The notes beneath the pieces are model-generated. The model did not search any database, was not told the DNA's origin, and was given only the letters and a program-made list of their open reading frames with translations. A program made the translations under genes and the position numbers. DNA of 38,832 bases from an uncultured Candidatus Saccharibacteria bacterium (GTDB lineage: Bacteria > Patescibacteriota > Doudnabacteria > UBA920), in NCBI GenBank assembly GCA_964557735.1, contig CAZLAR010000002.1, positions 1 to 38,832 of the forward strand, given 5' to 3'. Shown piece after piece: positions 56 through 9,011 of this stretch (its first letter is position 1; every line of letters begins with the position of its first letter).

Positions 56-74
56 TTTACGTCAGTTTTATCTA
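56..74 (+). promoter_or_regulatory. Copy 1 of the 19-nt motif TTTACGTCAGTTTTATCTA, upstream of comM
   Basis: 18/19 identical to 31206-31224 and 17/19 identical to the reverse complement of 34490-34508. Exactly 20 nt separate the motif end from ATGGCA at 95. Confidence 0.55.
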
Positions 75-94: not shown

Positions 95-1681
95 ATGGCA
101 GTACAAAAAATATTTACAGCAACTTTAGTTGGGATAAATGCAGCGCTAGTAGAAGTGGAAGCAGACGTTAGCAACGGTCTACCAACCACAATTATTGTAG
201 GGCTTCCGGATGCCGCTGTTCAGGAAAGCCGTGAACGTGTGCGGTCAGCAATTAAGCATTCTGGCTTTTTTTACCCACAAAACAGGGTGTCTTTAAACTT
301 GGCTCCTGGTAGTTTGCCAAAGGTGGGAACACATTTTGATGTGCCAATAGCGGTGGCGATTATGTTGGCCAATGGTTTGCAGATTCGGCGCCCTGGAGGT
401 GGAGACTGCGCAGTTAAGGGTGCGCCGGCGGAAAGCAAAAACACTAAGCAGTTGCTCGTGGGCGAGCTCTCGTTGGATGGTTCCGTAAAGCCGACGCCCG
501 GGGTTTTAGCCATGACTCAAGTCGCTCGGAACAACGGGTTCGCCGCGGCGTTCGTCCCATTTGAGAATGCCAGCATGGCCGCACTGGTCAAAGGAATTAC
601 TGTTTATCCTGTAGAAAATTTAGCTCAACTTTTAGATCATATCATTGGTACGACCTTAATTAAGCCGCATAATTCTACTAGTGAGTTATTTAGCGCGCCC
701 ACACAAACAAAGAATGATGGGTCGCGTTTATCATTGACGCAAACAGACTTTGCAAATATCGCCGGACAACATCATGCAAAGAGAGCGCTAGAAATTTCGG
801 CAGCCGGCGGACACAACTTACTTATGAACGGACCTCCTGGTAGTGGCAAGACGATGTTGGCTAAAGCGCTACCAGGAATTTTACCTCCGCTGGAACACGA
901 AGAAATTTTAGAACTAACAAAAATTTATAATAGTGCCGGGCACTTACAAGCAGGCGTAGTTACTCAGAGACCTGTGCGAAGTCCGCATCATGCCGCTTCG
1001 GCGATTGCGCTTATTGGTGGCGGTGCTGTGCCACGCCCAGGGGAGGTAACTTTGGCACACAGGGGTGTATTGTTTTTAGACGAGTTTTCTGAATTTTCGA
1101 GTAGTGTTTTAGAAGTGCTGAGGCAACCGTTGGAAGATAATCACATTTCAATTACGCGTCTACGACACTCCTACACTTTCCCAGCCAGTTTCATTTTAGT
1201 GGCAGCACAAAATCCTTGCCCGTGTGGGAATTTTGGACAAACAAATTTAGAATGTACATGTGCTCCCGCAAATGTGCAGAGGTATAGAAAGAAAATTTCT
1301 GGGCCGTTGCTCGACCGAATTGACTTGCACATAAACGTACCGCGGCTGCAGTACCAAGAGATCATGGTGACGTCTTCAGAAGAAGAAACTTCTGCTGAAG
1401 TTCAAACACGAGTAGTCGCAGCGCGCGCTGTTCAAACAAAACGTTTTGGCAGACCGAAAACCAATAACGAGATGACCCCAGAACAACTTAAGCAATTTTG
1501 CGTCGTCGACCCGCAAAGCAATCGATTACTAGAAAAAGCGGCGGACAAATACCAGTTATCAGGGCGGGCTATACATAGAGTGCTAAAAGTGGCTCGAACA
1601 ATAGCCGACTTGGCAGGCGTTGAACATATTACTCAGCAGCACATTGCTGAAAGCTTGCAATATCGGTTTCATAATGAATAA
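95..1681 (+). CDS. comM: YifB/ComM-family Mg-chelatase-like AAA+ ATPase
   Basis: ORF 89..1681. Has a Lon-like N-domain, Walker A GPPGSGKTM, and the Cys cluster CPCGNFGQTNLECTC. ATG 95 is preferred over GTG 89 because the motif-to-ATGGCA spacing equals that of yraN. Confidence 0.93.
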   Translation: MAVQKIFTATLVGINAALVEVEADVSNGLPTTIIVGLPDAAVQESRERVRSAIKHSGFFYPQNRVSLNLAPGSLPKVGTHFDVPIAVAIMLANGLQIRRPGGGDCAVKGAPAESKNTKQLLVGELSLDGSVKPTPGVLAMTQVARNNGFAAAFVPFENASMAALVKGITVYPVENLAQLLDHIIGTTLIKPHNSTSELFSAPTQTKNDGSRLSLTQTDFANIAGQHHAKRALEISAAGGHNLLMNGPPGSGKTMLAKALPGILPPLEHEEILELTKIYNSAGHLQAGVVTQRPVRSPHHAASAIALIGGGAVPRPGEVTLAHRGVLFLDEFSEFSSSVLEVLRQPLEDNHISITRLRHSYTFPASFILVAAQNPCPCGNFGQTNLECTCAPANVQRYRKKISGPLLDRIDLHINVPRLQYQEIMVTSSEEETSAEVQTRVVAARAVQTKRFGRPKTNNEMTPEQLKQFCVVDPQSNRLLEKAADKYQLSGRAIHRVLKVARTIADLAGVEHITQQHIAESLQYRFHNE

Positions 1682-1708
1682 TTTGCACCGCCATGTCTTA
1701 CGTAAGTG

Positions 1709-1717
1709 TGGTATAAT
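1709..1717 (+). promoter_or_regulatory. Extended -10 promoter (TGgTATAAT) for galU
   Basis: TATAAT lies at 1712-1717 with TGn immediately upstream. The predicted +1 is about 1724, 2 nt before ATG 1726, and there is no SD. Confidence 0.5.
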
Positions 1718-1725
1718 ATCTGCAT

Positions 1726-2625
1726 ATGCAGAAGAAAGTTAGAAAAGCAGTTATCCCGGTGGCTGGGTTTGGAACGCGTTTCCTCCCGGCGACAAAAGCC
1801 CAGCCAAAGGAAATGTTGCCTTTGGTAGATAAGCCAATTATTCAATATGTAGTAGAAGATGCGGTTTCGGCTGGCATCGAAGATATTATTCTAGTAACAG
1901 GATGGCACAAGCGTAACATTGAAGATCACTTTGACTATCCATTTGAGTTAGAAAAGCGCTTGGAAGAAGCTGGCAAGATAGAACAGCTAGAAGAAATTCG
2001 AGCGATTGCTAATTTGGCTAACTTTTATTACGTTCGCCAAAAAGGACCTATGGGTAATGGTACTCCGATTTGGAATGCTCGTCATTTAATTGGTGATGAA
2101 CCGTTCTTAGTCCTTTGGGGTGATGAATTTGTTGCTGCCGCTCCTCAAACTCGCTCCCAACAATTGGTGGCCGCTTACGAAAAATATGGTGGTAGTGCAA
2201 TTCTTGGTGCGGTACGTACATCTCGCCCTGAAGATTACGAGCGTTACGGCTACGCAGCCGGCGATGATCTTGGTGATGGTGTTTTAAAAATTAATCAATT
2301 TGTAGAGAAACCAGGACAGGGAGTGATCGATTCAGATTACGCTGTTGTTGGTGGTTATGTGTTTAGCCCAGATTACTTTCCAGCTATTGAGGAGGCCATG
2401 ACAGATTTGCAAAAGCGTAATACTCCTGATGAATTGTATTGGGCAGACGGTATGCGTAATTTATTACGCGACGGCAAAGATGCGCACGCAGTAGAAATTC
2501 AGAACGGTCGTTACTACGATTGTGGTAACAAACTTGAGTACTTAAAAGCAGTGGTAGAGTTTGGTTTAAAGCATGAAGACTTAAAAGATGATTTCTCTGC
2601 TTTCTTGAAAAACATTTCTAATTAA
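1726..2625 (+). CDS. galU: UTP--glucose-1-phosphate uridylyltransferase
   Basis: 299 aa. N-terminal motif AVIPVAGFGTRFLPATKAQPKEMLP is typical of GalU/nucleotidyltransferases. Confidence 0.93.
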   Translation: MQKKVRKAVIPVAGFGTRFLPATKAQPKEMLPLVDKPIIQYVVEDAVSAGIEDIILVTGWHKRNIEDHFDYPFELEKRLEEAGKIEQLEEIRAIANLANFYYVRQKGPMGNGTPIWNARHLIGDEPFLVLWGDEFVAAAPQTRSQQLVAAYEKYGGSAILGAVRTSRPEDYERYGYAAGDDLGDGVLKINQFVEKPGQGVIDSDYAVVGGYVFSPDYFPAIEEAMTDLQKRNTPDELYWADGMRNLLRDGKDAHAVEIQNGRYYDCGNKLEYLKAVVEFGLKHEDLKDDFSAFLKNISN

Positions 2626-4174: not shown

Positions 4175-4777
4175 ATGACAAACAAAACTAAGAAAATTTT
4201 TGGTGCAATTGTTGGGATGGTTTTGGTTGTCACTGCTTTTTTGGCTGTTTCTGATTCGGTAAATTTAATTCCAGAAGTATTTGCTCAAACTACTACTACC
4301 ACAGAAAAAGGCGATGCCGGTGGTTTTGTTCCCTGTGGTAATACTGCTGGTAACCCTTGTGAAATTGATCACTTATTTTCTACTTTCGTTGTAATTGTTA
4401 ATTACTTAATTGCTATGGCCGGGTTCTTTGCGATGGTAGCAATTGTTTTTGCTGGCTTCATGATGGTTTACTCTCAAGGTCAAGAGCAACTTAAGGCGGC
4501 TAAGGGTAGATTGTCTGGAGCGGTAATTGGTTTAGTGCTAGTAGCTGCTGCTTTTGTGTTGATTAACGCGCTCTTTGCAGGCAGTTTAAGTATCGGCGTC
4601 AGAGAAGGACCCGGAATTCTCTCTAGTCCGCTAGATTATATTCGTAATACCCCGAGTTCAAGCACTGAAGCTACTCCTTCTACTACCAATCCAAATACTA
4701 ACAGTACGACGAAACCAAATACAAATTCAAATACTGCTCCGCCAAAGACTCCAACTAAACCAACCACCGGAAAATAA
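4175..4777 (+). CDS. VirB2/TrbC-like (T4SS-pilin-like) membrane protein, paralog 1, with an S/T/P/N-rich C-terminal tail
   Basis: Signal peptide ends at FAQT. Ectodomain has a Cys-x7-Cys loop. Two TM helices flank FAGFMMVYSQGQEQLKAAKGR. Confidence 0.7.
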   Translation: MTNKTKKIFGAIVGMVLVVTAFLAVSDSVNLIPEVFAQTTTTTEKGDAGGFVPCGNTAGNPCEIDHLFSTFVVIVNYLIAMAGFFAMVAIVFAGFMMVYSQGQEQLKAAKGRLSGAVIGLVLVAAAFVLINALFAGSLSIGVREGPGILSSPLDYIRNTPSSSTEATPSTTNPNTNSTTKPNTNSNTAPPKTPTKPTTGK

Positions 4778-4778
4778 T

Positions 4779-5585
4779 ATGTTTAATAGTTTTACTAAAT
4801 TTACAATAACTAAAATTTTAGGAGCAAGCCTTTTGTTTTTAATGTTTGTTGGTAACCTTGTGGTTGTAAATCAAGCTCAAGCGGTTTCTTGTGATTGGGT
4901 GCCATATATTTTAGATAATAGTCTTCGCGAAGAGTTGCCAATGAGAGAGTATGGTGGTGGTAATGCATTTGTATTTAAGGTTTCAGAAGCAGAGAAGGCT
5001 AGTTTAAGCCTTGGGGTGGGTGGAAAAGATTGTAAGGATCAGCAGTTCACTGTCACATATACTGTTAGCACAGGTGGGGCAGAAGGCAAGAGAATTAAAT
5101 TGGTAATGGGGCCTGACAAACCACCGCTCGCTCAAAATGTTATTGTTGGCTTTGTTACTACCCAAAAACTTCCTGTGCCTAAAACCCCTTCAGTTTATAA
5201 GTACTACATTAAAGCCGGTGAAGATACAGAAAGATCAATCCAGGTGGTATATGTGGAAGGAGATTTACCTCCAGTTGTGAAGAATCAAGCCAGTACCGAT
5301 CCTACAAAAAGAGAGCCAGTAGAAATTGCACAAATTACTAACCCATTTGGTCCCAGTGCCACGACCGCGCAAGGTGTAGCGACTCGAGTGATTAATGTAT
5401 TGTTAGCGCTAATTGTTATTGCTGCTGTAATAGTAATAGTGATTTCGGGTTTCCGCATGGTTGTTGGTGGTAGTAACCCAGATCAGTTAAAAAAAGCGAA
5501 GGCTGGCATTCTTTGGTCGCTAGTAGGCTTGGCAGTGGCCTTTATGTCATTCGCAATCGTACAAATTATTCAAGGTTTATTGTAA
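4779..5585 (+). CDS. VirB2/TrbC-like membrane protein, paralog 2
   Basis: Signal peptide ends at AQAV. The ~170-aa ectodomain has 2 Cys. C-terminal module is ISGFRMVVGGSNPDQLKKAKAGILWSLVGLAV. Confidence 0.7.
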   Translation: MFNSFTKFTITKILGASLLFLMFVGNLVVVNQAQAVSCDWVPYILDNSLREELPMREYGGGNAFVFKVSEAEKASLSLGVGGKDCKDQQFTVTYTVSTGGAEGKRIKLVMGPDKPPLAQNVIVGFVTTQKLPVPKTPSVYKYYIKAGEDTERSIQVVYVEGDLPPVVKNQASTDPTKREPVEIAQITNPFGPSATTAQGVATRVINVLLALIVIAAVIVIVISGFRMVVGGSNPDQLKKAKAGILWSLVGLAVAFMSFAIVQIIQGLL

Positions 5586-5595
5586 AGTAACTCTC

Positions 5596-6543
5596 ATGAA
5601 AAAATTCCTCCTAATTATATTAATATTTACCTTGGTCACACCATTCGCATCGGCATTTGTTTCTCCTAAATTAGCCCAAGCTAATATAAATAACTGTGTG
5701 GTAAAGCTGGACTTATTAACTGCTAGTGATAAATTAATTGCCCCAGGCTCCACTATATTAGCTAATGTCGATACCCCATTTAGGTTAAGAGTGACCATTG
5801 AGATTAACCCCACTGGCGGAGCTGGTGAGTGTTACCCAGACCTGAAGTATGTGGTTAATGCCAATCGTACTTCCACCATTACTGATCCGAACGAGCCTAA
5901 TAGCTCAGAGTTTATAGGAGAAGTTGATTCTGCAGGATTATTTGCCTCAAATTTCCAAAACAACAGATTTTCAAAAATAACTCAATTAGGTGGAGGTACT
6001 CCACCTAGTGCTGGCGTTCCTGATTATGATTATTCCTATGCTATTATCTATCAGTATAAGAACGATGCTGGGGGAGCAACTCGGAGAACAAAAAGTATTC
6101 ATGTTGCGTTTACTAATAAAAAAGGTGCAGTGACTACCCCAGGGGGAACTGGCTCAGGTGGCCAAAATCCCTCCACTAACAGCAATACAAACACAGCGAC
6201 ACAAAACAATTCTACTCCAAACGCGCAAATCAACACCGGTGTTACCGCAACGTATAAGGCAGATTTAGACACGCCACTTGGCTTCTTCATCAATCCTCTT
6301 ACCAAAGACACGTTGCCAGAACTGTTGGCATCGATTTTAAAGATTCTGTTCATTTTAATTGGAATGATTTCGGTGATCATAATTATTATCGCTGGGTTCC
6401 GAATGGTTATTGCGTCGGGTAACGAGACTGAATTGACTAAAGCCAAAGCTGCCATTACCTGGGCGATCATCGGGTTAATTGTCTCGTTAATGTCGTTTAG
6501 TATTGTGGCAATTATTCAGCGACTCATTCAAGTAGGTGCTTAA
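5596..6543 (+). CDS. VirB2/TrbC-like membrane protein, paralog 3
   Basis: Signal peptide, then a ~220-aa ectodomain with 2 Cys and an N/T-rich linker. C-terminal module is IAGFRMVIASGNETELTKAKAAITWAIIGLIV. Confidence 0.7.
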   Translation: MKKFLLIILIFTLVTPFASAFVSPKLAQANINNCVVKLDLLTASDKLIAPGSTILANVDTPFRLRVTIEINPTGGAGECYPDLKYVVNANRTSTITDPNEPNSSEFIGEVDSAGLFASNFQNNRFSKITQLGGGTPPSAGVPDYDYSYAIIYQYKNDAGGATRRTKSIHVAFTNKKGAVTTPGGTGSGGQNPSTNSNTNTATQNNSTPNAQINTGVTATYKADLDTPLGFFINPLTKDTLPELLASILKILFILIGMISVIIIIIAGFRMVIASGNETELTKAKAAITWAIIGLIVSLMSFSIVAIIQRLIQVGA

Positions 6544-6556
6544 CAAAAAACATAAA

Positions 6557-7027
6557 ATGATAAAAACTTTTTCAAAAATTGTTGTAGGAGTTAGTGTTGC
6601 AATGTTCGCGGCGATGTTGTTGGTGTTACCGTTCGTAATAAACACAGTAGACGCGCAAACCAAATCACCGACTAACTCTTCTACAAAGACAACCACTCCA
6701 ACCCCGACTCAAATTTGCGATGACTTAAAAGCACAACTGGGCAGAGGTGGCTTTGAGTGGGACAAGGAAAAACTCCCAGAATACTGTACAACCAACACTC
6801 TCTATAACAAAATCATCAAAGGTGCTTTGTATGCCGTTGGTATTGTGGCAGTAATCGTTATTATTTACGGTGGCTATATCTACATGACTGCTGCTGGTAA
6901 CGACGAACAACGTAAAAGAGGCCGCACCATCCTGACGTGGGCCGTCGTGGGTCTAATAGTAGTAATTCTAGCCGTTGTCTTAGTTAATATCGCGGTTAAG
7001 CTCCTTGTTGAAAAGTCGGTTGTGTAA
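6557..7027 (+). CDS. VirB2/TrbC-like membrane protein, paralog 4
   Basis: ATG 6557 (MIKTFSK...) is preferred over GTG 6536, which overlaps paralog 3. Signal peptide ends at DAQT. C-terminal module is YGGYIYMTAAGNDEQRKRGRTILTWAVVGLIV. Confidence 0.7.
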   Translation: MIKTFSKIVVGVSVAMFAAMLLVLPFVINTVDAQTKSPTNSSTKTTTPTPTQICDDLKAQLGRGGFEWDKEKLPEYCTTNTLYNKIIKGALYAVGIVAVIVIIYGGYIYMTAAGNDEQRKRGRTILTWAVVGLIVVILAVVLVNIAVKLLVEKSVV

Positions 7028-7085
7028 TTCCCTGTATATAGTAGAATATAAGTACGTTACTTTATCTTAAAGAATCTGTTAGGAG

Positions 7086-7114
7086 TTCGCTCAGTGTTAG
7101 CCAGCGAATTTTTT
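7086..7114 (+). terminator. Intrinsic terminator after paralogs 1-4
   Basis: TTCGCT (7086-7091) pairs with AGCGAA (7103-7108) and is followed by T6. Confidence 0.6.
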
Positions 7115-7137
7115 ACAGCTTCATCCTCTTCCGAAAG

Positions 7138-7572
7138 GTGGTGAAAAAATTGAAACAAACGTTGCAAAAACTTAATTGGTTAAATATTGCTCAGTTCGTA
7201 GTTATGTTGATGGTAGTCTTGGCTCCTGTCTATGTTCCTATGACTGCTCAAGCTGGTTTAGTAGATACATTCGTAAACAACTGTCCTGCCGACACCGGCG
7301 TGCGTTGTTCTGAAGGAAGCATTGCTTCTATCTTCCGCTTGATCATTAACTGGGCATTGGCAATCGCTTTTATCGCTGCTGTTATCATGTTAATTTACGG
7401 TGGTTTCCTTTACATCACGTCAGCAGGAAACACTGAAAATGCTACTAAAGGTAAGACAGCTATTACCAACGCTCTAGTTGGTGTCGTAATCATTGTCCTT
7501 TCTTACATTATTGTTCAAATCGTGTACAGATTCGTTTCTGGTTCCGGTTCAGGTGGTATTACTGGTCCATAA
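7138..7572 (+). CDS. VirB2/TrbC-like membrane protein, paralog 5
   Basis: The start is ambiguous (GTG 7138, GTG 7141 or TTG 7150). Signal peptide ends at AQAG. Ectodomain has a Cys-x7-Cys loop. C-terminal module is YGGFLYITSAGNTENATKGKTAITNALVGVVI. Confidence 0.7.
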   Translation: MVKKLKQTLQKLNWLNIAQFVVMLMVVLAPVYVPMTAQAGLVDTFVNNCPADTGVRCSEGSIASIFRLIINWALAIAFIAAVIMLIYGGFLYITSAGNTENATKGKTAITNALVGVVIIVLSYIIVQIVYRFVSGSGSGGITGP

Positions 7573-7688
7573 TTGTTTTCCCGCATTAGAGACTTTACAA
7601 TGCGGGATAGCTCTGGGAACAAAACAAAATATTTGTGCAAAGATTTTGTTTCCGGAGTTGTAAAGACAGTTTTAATAAACTTAAAAAG

Positions 7689-8126
7689 ATGAAACAAAAA
7701 ATTACTTTAAAAATACTTGGGGGATTAGTGGCATTGATGGCCGTGTTCTTTTTCGTCCCAAACTTTTCACCGGTGCAGGCTCAGGGAACTACTAGCCCCG
7801 GAGTTACAGCTTGTCCTCCTAACTCTCCTAATTGTGCTCAAGAGGGCTTGAATGCTATTGGCTCGGCTTTTCCCGGCGGAGTAAAGCAAAACTACAGCAT
7901 CAGAGATATTGCGAGAACAGTAATTGAATGGGCATTATACTTAGCAGCGATTATTGCAGTAATCTTTATTATCATCGGTGGCTTTATGTATATCACTTCT
8001 GCTGGTAATGAAGGTCAAGCAGGTAAAGGGCGTACTACTTTAGTCAACGCTTTAATAGGTTTGGCTATTATTATTCTTTCTTACCTAATAGTCCAAGTAG
8101 TTTACAACTTCTTGGTACAAAGATAG
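7689..8126 (+). CDS. VirB2/TrbC-like membrane protein, paralog 6
   Basis: ATG 7689 (MKQKITLK...) is preferred over the track start at 7635. Signal peptide ends at AQGT. Ectodomain has a Cys-x6-Cys loop. C-terminal module is IGGFMYITSAGNEGQAGKGRTTLVNALIGLAI. Confidence 0.7.
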   Translation: MKQKITLKILGGLVALMAVFFFVPNFSPVQAQGTTSPGVTACPPNSPNCAQEGLNAIGSAFPGGVKQNYSIRDIARTVIEWALYLAAIIAVIFIIIGGFMYITSAGNEGQAGKGRTTLVNALIGLAIIILSYLIVQVVYNFLVQR

Positions 8127-8138
8127 GGCTTTCGCTAT

Positions 8139-9011
8139 TTGGAACCCCAACAAATTAAAACTTCAGTGAATATTTCGTACTCAAAAATTTTAACTAAATT
8201 TTCCCTCGCCATGCTCGCTTTGTTTAGCATGGCGTTGTTTGTTGTTCCAGCACCGAAAGAGGCTGAGGCTCAGTCAGGTGCTACTAGAAACACTATCGTT
8301 GTTTGTTTTAATGGTGCTGGTGGCGCAGTTACATTCACTGATAGTATTGCGAACTGCCCAACTGGGACTTATAAGCAGGCTTTAGTCTATCAAAGAGCAG
8401 AAGCTGGTGTATGTGTTTATAAAACCAACAATCCTGATCCTGAAGAACCTACGCATGTTATTAAGGGACCGGGAACATCCAAATATTCTGTTGACGATAA
8501 AGGAAATCGGATAGATAAAGTTTGTAAATCTGATACTGGTACCACGACAGGTACCTTTACGTCGTTCCCTCCTGTAACTACTATAACTCCAATTAACCCT
8601 GGCCCGGGCACTGGCACAAACCCAAACACTAAGCCCCCGGTTACACCCGGTGGCACAATAACTCCAGGTGGCTCATCAACTCCAGACGTCCCCTGTGGCG
8701 ACTCAGATGGCTTCCGCAAATTGGGCCCACTGTGTGTACCTAACAATCCATTTAGCAAAGACTCCATTGCTGGCGGAGACTTAACCGCGACTAGTCTGGC
8801 AATCCGCATTATCCGCATTTTGCTGTACTTCGCTGCCATAGTTTCAGTAATTATGATCATTATTGGTGGTTACTACGTAATGACTGCTCAAGGGAATGAA
8901 TCGCAGGCATCCACAGGCAAGAAGACTTTAATTAACGCCCTGATTGGTTTAGGAATTACCATTCTGGCTTACTTAATTGTGCAGGTGGTTGTTAATTTCA
9001 TCACTAAATAG
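8139..9011 (+). CDS. VirB2/TrbC-like membrane protein, paralog 7
   Basis: The start is uncertain (TTG 8139 or GTG 8166). Signal peptide ends at AEAQS. The ~190-aa ectodomain has 6 Cys and a G/T/P-rich linker. C-terminal module is IGGYYVMTAQGNESQASTGKKTLINALIGLGI. Confidence 0.7.
   Translation: MEPQQIKTSVNISYSKILTKFSLAMLALFSMALFVVPAPKEAEAQSGATRNTIVVCFNGAGGAVTFTDSIANCPTGTYKQALVYQRAEAGVCVYKTNNPDPEEPTHVIKGPGTSKYSVDDKGNRIDKVCKSDTGTTTGTFTSFPPVTTITPINPGPGTGTNPNTKPPVTPGGTITPGGSSTPDVPCGDSDGFRKLGPLCVPNNPFSKDSIAGGDLTATSLAIRIIRILLYFAAIVSVIMIIIGGYYVMTAQGNESQASTGKKTLINALIGLGITILAYLIVQVVVNFITK

Follow-up and report, generated by a model that had tools for sequence, protein, structure and literature searches.

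PhoB activates transcription at pho boxes, whose features are well established, and the middle promoters of phage T4 join a MotA box to a sigma-70 −10 element that is often extended. In this study, we relate such promoters to a motif in a 38,832-nucleotide stretch of DNA from an uncultured Candidatus Saccharibacteria bacterium (contig CAZLAR010000002.1 of assembly GCA_964557735.1), which is referred to below as the window. The motif is 19 nucleotides (nt) long and precedes comM, yraN, and a gene for a small membrane protein, and it had been proposed as a candidate signal for a regulon of DNA uptake and processing. The window has a G+C content of approximately 42%, and its organism belongs to a small-genome lineage of the Patescibacteria, or candidate phyla radiation (CPR). 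Because the same type of promoter precedes recA, comM, and yraN in this lineage, the motif appears to mark a co-regulated set of DNA recombination genes.

The afs box comprises two 11-bp direct repeats that are centered at −29.5, and its 3′ repeat lies 8 bp from the −10 element (PMC10936776). Boxes of the SARP and OmpR/PhoB types resemble the element described here in several ways: they are built from 11-bp tandem direct repeats that share one helix face, they are centered at about −29 or −30 and so positioned as to overlap the −35 element or stand in for it, their 3′ repeat keeps a fixed distance of 8 to 10 bp to the −10, and their promoters have a poor −35 and a weak −10 (PMC10936776 for the afs box). 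In the promoters studied here, two promoter-proximal units likewise repeat at 11-bp spacing, span approximately −39 to −18, and overlap the −35 position, and the block TTTATC(T) ends at a fixed 9 to 10 bp before the −10 hexamer. The sequences, however, are unrelated, with TCGAGxx and CTGTCAT repeats in the SARP and PhoB systems and units of AAACTTTA, TTTAcgT, and TTTTATC in ours. Our element also differs in having three to four units rather than two, an extended −10, mRNAs that are predicted to be leaderless, and a host among the Patescibacteria.

The PafBC-dependent DNA-damage promoters of Actinobacteria such as the mycobacteria (RecA-NDp, "sigma adaptation"), including that of recA, join a canonical −10 to an upstream element specific to the factor and have no −35, and they place recA and further repair genes under a control that does not depend on a classical LexA box (PMC8635444). 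The promoters studied here are hybrids of the same construction, in that the distance to the upstream element is fixed and recA is one of the targets, but they do not carry the PafBC motif, tGTCgg-N10-tAnnnT, in which GTC is strictly conserved 15 nt before the −10, within −28 to −23 (PMC8635444). In the window, GTC starts 22 nt ahead of the −10 hexamer, relatives have ATC, GAT, GTT, or GTG in its place, and the element as a whole is a long 11-bp-phased repeat, unlike that of PafBC. No gene for a WYL-domain protein is present in the related genomes within the stretches examined, which amount to approximately 60 kb per genome. The T4 middle promoters, which are mentioned in the same source (PMC8635444), resemble our promoters in that a box near −30 replaces the −35 ahead of a primary-sigma −10 with TGn. 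They differ in belonging to a phage system that relies on AsiA and MotA, and in having a single 9-bp box with no repeat array.

Three copies of the motif lie in the window: TTTACGTCAGTTTTATCTA at positions 56 to 74 of the plus strand (comM), TTTAAGTCAGTTTTATCTA at 31206 to 31224 of the plus strand (yraN), and TTTACGTCAGTTTTATCAG at 34508 to 34490 of the minus strand (the small membrane protein). As originally predicted, each copy is intergenic and directed toward the next gene, and the comM and yraN copies both end 20 nt ahead of the sequence TATGGCA. A search of the whole window for the 17-mer with up to three mismatches returned exactly these three sites, whereas dinucleotide-preserving shuffles contained 0.30 sites on average and three or more sites in none of 100 trials. 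A position-weight scan added a fourth, weaker copy at 27014 on the minus strand (TTTACATGGGTTTTATTAT after cttgatcgAAAACTTTA), and the rest of the window scored at background. These four copies in 38.8 kb do not behave as a dispersed repeat, given that all are intergenic, oriented toward a gene, and at the same distance from the −10, with none inside genes. They constitute an oriented, position-fixed, promoter-associated signal that is common to unlinked genes. The signal is found upstream of only 4 of the approximately 40 transcription units in the window and precedes no ribosomal-protein gene or other highly expressed gene. We are highly confident that it is a promoter signal of some kind that is specific to a set of genes.

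The original prediction took TATCTA, at the 3′ end of the motif, to be the −10 element and placed the transcription start 7 nt after it, and neither assignment is supported. TATCTA was rejected as the −10 because it is not conserved (relatives have TATCAA, TATCTG, TATGTA, CATCAG, TAACTC, GAACCC, or GAACTG), whereas a different element 8 nt past the 19-mer is. In copies 1 to 3, TG occupies motif positions 25 and 26, and a hexamer with A second and T sixth (TACGCT, CATACT, and AATAAT) occupies positions 28 to 33, which together we read as an extended −10 (TGn-TAnnnT). These elements are TGt TACGCT at 80 to 88 of the plus strand for comM, TGc CATACT at 31230 to 31238 of the plus strand for yraN, and TGt AATAAT at 34476 to 34484 of the minus strand for copy 3. 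Because the A of the ATG codon lies 7 nt past the hexamer in both comM (position 95) and yraN (position 31245), as is usual for a transcription start, this A is the predicted start of both mRNAs, and both are predicted to be leaderless. The start for copy 3 is predicted near 34469, approximately 25 nt before the ATG at 34443. The 19-mer would then cover about −39 to −21, or the −35/spacer region of its promoter. TTTACG was also considered as a −35 element and was ruled out, since its spacer to the conserved −10 is 21 nt.

A scan of a genome collection with the plain 17-mer gave at least 115 loci, nearly all of them single chance matches in unrelated phyla, and these were used as a null set. 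Among the matches listed, 6 have TG at positions 25 and 26, 10 have both A29 and T33, and 1 has all three features. Two matches from Patescibacteria/Saccharibacteria in this set (L014 and L029) are without the −10 geometry. When viral contigs were searched with the composite pattern, a single match was obtained inside a phage gene at 53% GC, and this was taken as chance.

The alignment of real instances comprises 13 sequences from four genes and six genomes. Positions T1 to T3, A4, T12, T13, A15, G26, A29, and T33 are invariant, and C17 and T25 are each present in 12 of the 13. No insertion or deletion separates the motif from the −10 in any instance; the hexamer always starts at position 28, TTTATC(T) always ends at position 17 or 18, and positions 20 to 24 vary freely. 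Position 40 is a purine throughout, the eight instances from comM and yraN all have the A of the ATG there, and the recA instances have a leader of approximately 25 nt that begins with GTAATTAAG. The −10 consensus of the class is TGn-TATGCT, with C at hexamer position 5 in nine instances. A weight matrix built from the aligned instances scores 34 to 60 at real sites, whereas 1.8 Mb of DNA from unrelated or distantly related sources scores no higher than 19.8.

These promoters are distinct from the housekeeping class, because the housekeeping promoters in the window are perfect TTGACA-N16/17-TGnTATAAT sequences (31594 to 31621 and 34595 to 34623). TGnTATAAT also occurs at 1726, 13310, and 22591, in each case only a short way ahead of the start codon. 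From these textbook examples, the primary sigma factor of this organism recognizes the standard consensus, and mRNAs that are leaderless, or nearly so, should be common. The hexamers of the motif promoters (TACGCT, CATACT, TAGTCT, TATGCT, and others) are weaker than those of the housekeeping promoters, and no TTGACA −35 accompanies them. A weak Shine-Dalgarno-like tetramer precedes the start codon of just 4 of 36 window genes, and several starts lie 6 to 10 nt past TGnTATAAT; translation initiation in the window seems to depend little on Shine-Dalgarno pairing.

The 19-mer is the promoter-proximal pair of units (TTTAcgTcagT and TTTATCtnnnn) in a direct-repeat array of three to four units with an 11-bp period. 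The units CTTGA, AAACTTTA, TTTAcgT, and TTTTATC together cover approximately −60 to −21. AAACTTTA is located at −15 to −8 relative to the 19-mer in 11 of the 13 instances, often with another CTTGA one turn higher. Autocorrelation over the aligned region reaches 0.53 at a lag of 11, compared to 0.22 to 0.36 at other lags, and the weight matrix gives a second score peak at a shift of −11 nt, one unit upstream of copy 2. In the comM promoter of L199, TTTA recurs at −33, −22, −11, 1, and 12, and the yraN promoter of L205 has five AAACTTTA-like units in tandem. The original preference for an activator-dependent or alternative-sigma promoter over a palindromic operator agrees with this direct-repeat structure and with the fixed spacing.

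Within the window, copy 2 and its upstream phased units (CTTGA..AAACTTTA..TTTAAGTCAGTTTTATCTA) span 31183 to 31224 of the plus strand, and copy 3 with its upstream AAACTTTA unit spans 34490 to 34523 of the minus strand. Copy 1 is without the upstream AAACTTTA unit. The diverged copy 4 (cttgatcgAAAACTTTAagaaaaaTTTACATGGGTTTTATTAT; 26982 to 27037, minus strand) has the full upstream architecture (cttgatcgAAAACTTTAagaaaaaTTTACA...) despite its missing TG, and its hexamer is TAAACT at 26987 to 26982. It scores 20 to 21, whereas shuffled sequences score 14.7 at the 95th percentile and 21.4 at most, and we include it in the motif set only tentatively.

Relatives were traced to contigs carrying homologs of ComM (92, 89, 75, 72, 69, and 67% identical) or YraN (70, 61, and 70% identical). 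The motif is kept upstream of the comM orthologs of L199 and L200, where the 19-mer is an exact match to copy 1, and of L201, L203, and L209, and it is kept upstream of the yraN orthologs of L205 and L208. Furthermore, recA, which had been suggested as a gene to examine, has the motif in four related genomes (L201, L202, L203, and L209). The relatives share the gene order ftsK, a rodZ-like gene, recA, a gene for a DnaQ-type exonuclease, a dksA-like gene, lspA, and comM, which places recA approximately 4.7 kb upstream of comM and just beyond the edge of the window. In L209, recA and comM have the identical 19-mer TTTACGTGGAATTGAACTG between different flanks, and its second half is unlike the version in the window; the yraN promoter of L208 carries a similar TTGAAC variant. 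Because the signal is identical within a genome and divergent between genomes, it appears to co-evolve in the manner expected of sites read by one evolving factor.

ComM relatives of 53% identity or less in JGI metagenomes are without the motif, and some have a different conserved element. In distant CPR lineages whose ComM proteins are 45 to 50% identical, TTTGTAGCGTATAGTCCRTAGAC or a variant precedes comM. Elements of this type lie 30 to 60 nt upstream of comM in L147, L154, L160, L162, L166, L173, L184, and L194, and another is found at position 838 of L181 on the minus strand. Since this second element precedes comM in distant lineages, the gene seems to have specific regulation in other parts of the CPR too, through a different signal.

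We give about even weight to the interpretation that the array is an activator box that replaces the −35 contact. A sequence-specific activator would bind the repeats along one helix face and recruit housekeeping RNA polymerase to the extended −10, and transcription would begin on the purine located 7 nt past the hexamer. PhoB acts in this manner at pho boxes and SARP/AfsR at afs boxes, and the logic matches that of PafBC. An inducing signal would thereby raise the expression of a small homologous-recombination set composed of recA (strand exchange), comM (branch migration), and yraN (a predicted nuclease), and the same control would extend to the pair of small membrane proteins and perhaps to a tRNA-like RNA downstream of copy 4. 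We infer positive control through a stereospecific polymerase contact, rather than a blocking repressor, because of the invariant spacing, the 11-bp phasing, the absent −35, and the weak hexamers. The last two features are what activator dependence predicts.

Several observations weigh against this interpretation. Neither the window nor approximately 150 kb of related loci yielded a regulator gene. A RodZ-like gene with a helix-turn-helix domain that lies beside recA was ruled out as the regulator, given its RodZ C-terminal domain and a rodZ-recA adjacency that is old, as we take the Bacillus gene order ymfM-pgsA-cinA-recA to indicate. An extended −10 can work without an activator, and a repressor positioned over the −35/spacer region would also explain the location of the element. 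The class-specific −10, with its frequent C at hexamer position 5 (9 of 13), could point to another sigma factor. In addition, a related contig of 788 kb (L202/L207), which is probably a near-complete genome, keeps the canonical element at recA only, and its comM and yraN genes keep the extended −10 and the leaderless ATG, with a TTTTATC block 10 to 16 nt further upstream. Membership of the regulon is not fixed across the lineage. The placement of recA in the regulon comes from the relatives and not from the recA gene of the window's own organism. Finally, the small membrane proteins and the RNA have no obvious tie to recombination, and the apparent size and theme of the regulon are bounded by our view of only a fraction of any genome.

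A possible but unlikely alternative is that the array is the operator of a damage-responsive repressor of the LexA type, which would bind the direct repeat over the −35/spacer region in an SOS-like system, such that damage would inactivate the repressor and induce recA, comM, yraN, and a small membrane protein that acts as a division inhibitor. The best-conserved member of the set is indeed recA, extended −10 promoters are well established to need no −35, and small membrane division inhibitors are generally frequent in SOS regulons. However, neither comM nor yraN is a typical member of the SOS core. LexA motifs vary widely and include 4+7 direct repeats such as GTTC-N7-GTTC in Alphaproteobacteria (PMC8565304), and these boxes, like our element, pair a recA-containing regulon with a tetramer repeated across a 7-nt spacer. 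Our element differs from them in its sequence, in having more than two units, and in its fixed promoter position. The operators of one repressor normally vary from gene to gene in their distance to the −10, whereas this spacing is identical in 13 of 13 instances across four genes. Moreover, three to four phased units that extend to about −60 exceed what a dimeric repressor needs, and hexamers weaker than those of housekeeping promoters are not needed under pure repression.

LexA boxes are expected at both recA and lexA; a recA site is present in four genomes, and no lexA gene was seen in the stretches examined. GAAC-N4-GTTC, CTGT-N8-ACAG, and GTTC-N7-GTTC are all absent upstream of recA, comM, and yraN, in a comparison that did not include the Patescibacteria-specific LexA motif that Sanchez-Osuna et al. 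reportedly published in 2017 (cited in PMC8565304).

Less probable still is an alternative sigma factor, perhaps one for competence or stress, whose region 4 would read TTTA or TTTATC and the spacer ahead of the −10 TGn-TATGCT. The strictly fixed spacing between the upstream element and the −10, the TATGCT consensus in place of the housekeeping TATAAT, and the co-variation of the whole motif within a genome are all in keeping with this proposal, and Gram-positive competence sigma factors are generally known to drive recA and DNA-processing genes. Nevertheless, the conserved blocks lie at −39 to −36 and −28 to −23 and do not form one hexamer 16 to 18 nt from the −10, and a conserved part of approximately 40 to 55 bp that repeats at 11 bp is unlike any sigma −35 element. 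The TG extension, which is present in 12 of 13 instances, is the hallmark contact of region 3 of a primary-type sigma factor, and no sigma gene was seen nearby. Known competence regulons (CRP-S/Sxy in Pasteurellaceae and Vibrio, and the ComX com-box and ComK in Firmicutes) do resemble our set in placing DNA-processing genes such as comM, recA, and dprA under a shared signal. By inspection, the 13 aligned instances bear no likeness to TGCGA-N6-TCGCA, to TACGAATA (located at the −10), or to AAAA-N5-TTTT.

It is very improbable that no dedicated regulator is involved and that curved or UP-like phased A/T blocks strengthen a few promoters, or that the copies are left over from a dispersed repeat. 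Curved DNA does look like this, with A/T-rich blocks phased at 11 bp, and copy 4 drives an RNA gene rather than a recombination gene, but the non-A/T positions C5, G6, C8, C17, and C21 are kept between unlinked genes, recA and comM of L209 agree at 19 of 19 bases of a variant where curvature would require no such identity, the element is confined to the few transcription units noted above, and copies with unrelated flanks that are each gene-oriented at the same distance are unlike a mobile repeat.

The first gene downstream of a motif copy is comM (95 to 1681, plus strand), which encodes a YifB-family Mg-chelatase-like AAA+ ATPase (TIGR00368, 560 bits). Positions 1 to 55 of the window, which hold a CCCCGGGA...TCCCGGGG hairpin upstream of copy 1, bear no relation to the spacer between lspA and comM in L199 and L200, which are the closest relatives. 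This unrelated spacer and the missing upstream AAACTTTA unit at copy 1 suggest a rearrangement or insertion just 5′ of the window start. In the relatives, a 101-residue gene upstream of lspA-comM (L201 9218 to 9523 and orthologs) has a weak match to the DksA/YteA family and a TGcTATACT promoter with no motif, and its product may be an RNA-polymerase-binding protein. On the other side of comM, a mazE-mazF (PemK) pair lies between comM and a nucleotidyl-transferase gene in L199 (2863 to 3482), L200 (2615 to 3234), and L201 (11585 to 12201), and no such pair is present at comM in the window (1681 to 1726), L202, L203, or L209. Further downstream, at 4175 to 9011, seven consecutive genes each carry a T4SS-pilin domain (PF18895) at their end, and this array is kept in all relatives; no motif was found at these genes in the weight-matrix scan of the window. 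The uptake-related genes comEC, comEA, comF, and dprA occur neither in the window, which otherwise carries ordinary housekeeping genes, nor in the related loci that were examined.

The second gene, yraN (31245 to 31652, plus strand), encodes a predicted endonuclease of the UPF0102 family. An inverted repeat, ATGCCATAC/GTATGGCAT, at 31229 to 31251 of the plus strand spans both its −10 hexamer and its start codon, and the repeat is kept in four lineages with two compensatory pairs and one G-U. The resulting hairpin would hide the yraN AUG in read-through transcripts, and a leaderless transcript would lack the 5′ arm. This repeat may also explain the odd CATnCT hexamer.

Copy 3 precedes an operon of two small membrane proteins (34151 to 34443, minus strand), both of which are called as genes in L002. 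The first has 68 residues and two hydrophobic segments (34443 to 34237), and the second, which overlaps it, has 32 residues and one such segment (34249 to 34151). A terminator-like GC hairpin with a T-run follows directly 3′ of the operon. In family searches, neither protein matches a known family. The consensus promoter at 34595 to 34623 diverges from copy 3 and precedes an open reading frame that is over 1300 codons long (approximately 34932 to 38832, plus strand) and runs past the end of the window; the corresponding giant genes of relatives encode 1536 to 1873 residues.

The fourth copy precedes a 72-nt tRNA-like RNA (26903 to 26974, minus strand) that begins exactly at the predicted +1 position. 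This RNA is kept in L207 and L208, and 10 of its 26 pairs show compensatory changes among the three lineages. It has an acceptor-like stem of 9 bp, which is followed by CA, and a T-arm whose loop reads UUCGCCU. Identification as a tmRNA, a tRNA, or a known Rfam family is unsupported, with no call by ARAGORN or Rfam. Approximately 50 nt downstream, a consensus TTGACA-17-TATAAT promoter leads to a second small RNA (26853 to 26785, minus strand) that ends in a terminator. Over its first 14 nt, this second RNA shows perfect complementarity to the tRNA-like RNA's long hairpin, the complementarity co-varies in L207 and L208, and the whole locus is deleted in L205. The two are possibly a new RNA pair. 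In the long ahpC-rny spacer (27060 to 27305), several blocks show high conservation in L205, L207, and L208, and these, one of which is a hairpin at the start of rny, could represent an rny leader or another RNA.

ComM is a branch-migration helicase that acts in natural transformation, and YraN is a predicted PD-(D/E)XK nuclease. The two are presumably encoded beside dprA in Actinobacteria (Rv2896c to Rv2898c). A recombination pathway that includes RecA, ComM, and YraN is plausible. Natural transformation does occur in Saccharibacteria, by way of ComEC (PMC10633639). The members suit a regulon for DNA damage no less than one for competence, and the small membrane protein could equally well be an SOS-type division inhibitor.

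Our literature search, which did not extend to the study of the Patescibacteria SOS network by Sanchez-Osuna et al. (2017) that may describe a related motif, yielded no description of the element. Its sequence, repeat array, leaderless architecture, and lineage appear to be new. The principle is not, given that activator boxes that replace the −35 and regulons that contain recA are well known.

To our knowledge, almost nothing has been established about gene regulation in the CPR, whose members have very few recognizable transcription factors. The element defines a promoter class with predicted leaderless starts, and it connects yraN, whose role is obscure, with recA and comM through common regulation and not through gene neighborhood. 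It also offers a 60-bp bait for a regulator of recombination, and possibly of natural transformation or a damage response, and it could supply an inducible promoter for new Saccharibacteria genetic systems. We tentatively put forward a fuller picture, in which a new, LexA-independent regulator of this lineage reads the phased repeat in place of a −35 and switches on recA, comM, and yraN as leaderless mRNAs, a hairpin over the start codon silences read-through transcripts of yraN, and the tRNA-like RNA with its co-varying antisense partner belongs to the regulon. If true, this picture would give CPR bacteria their first defined transcriptional circuit for either competence or damage response.

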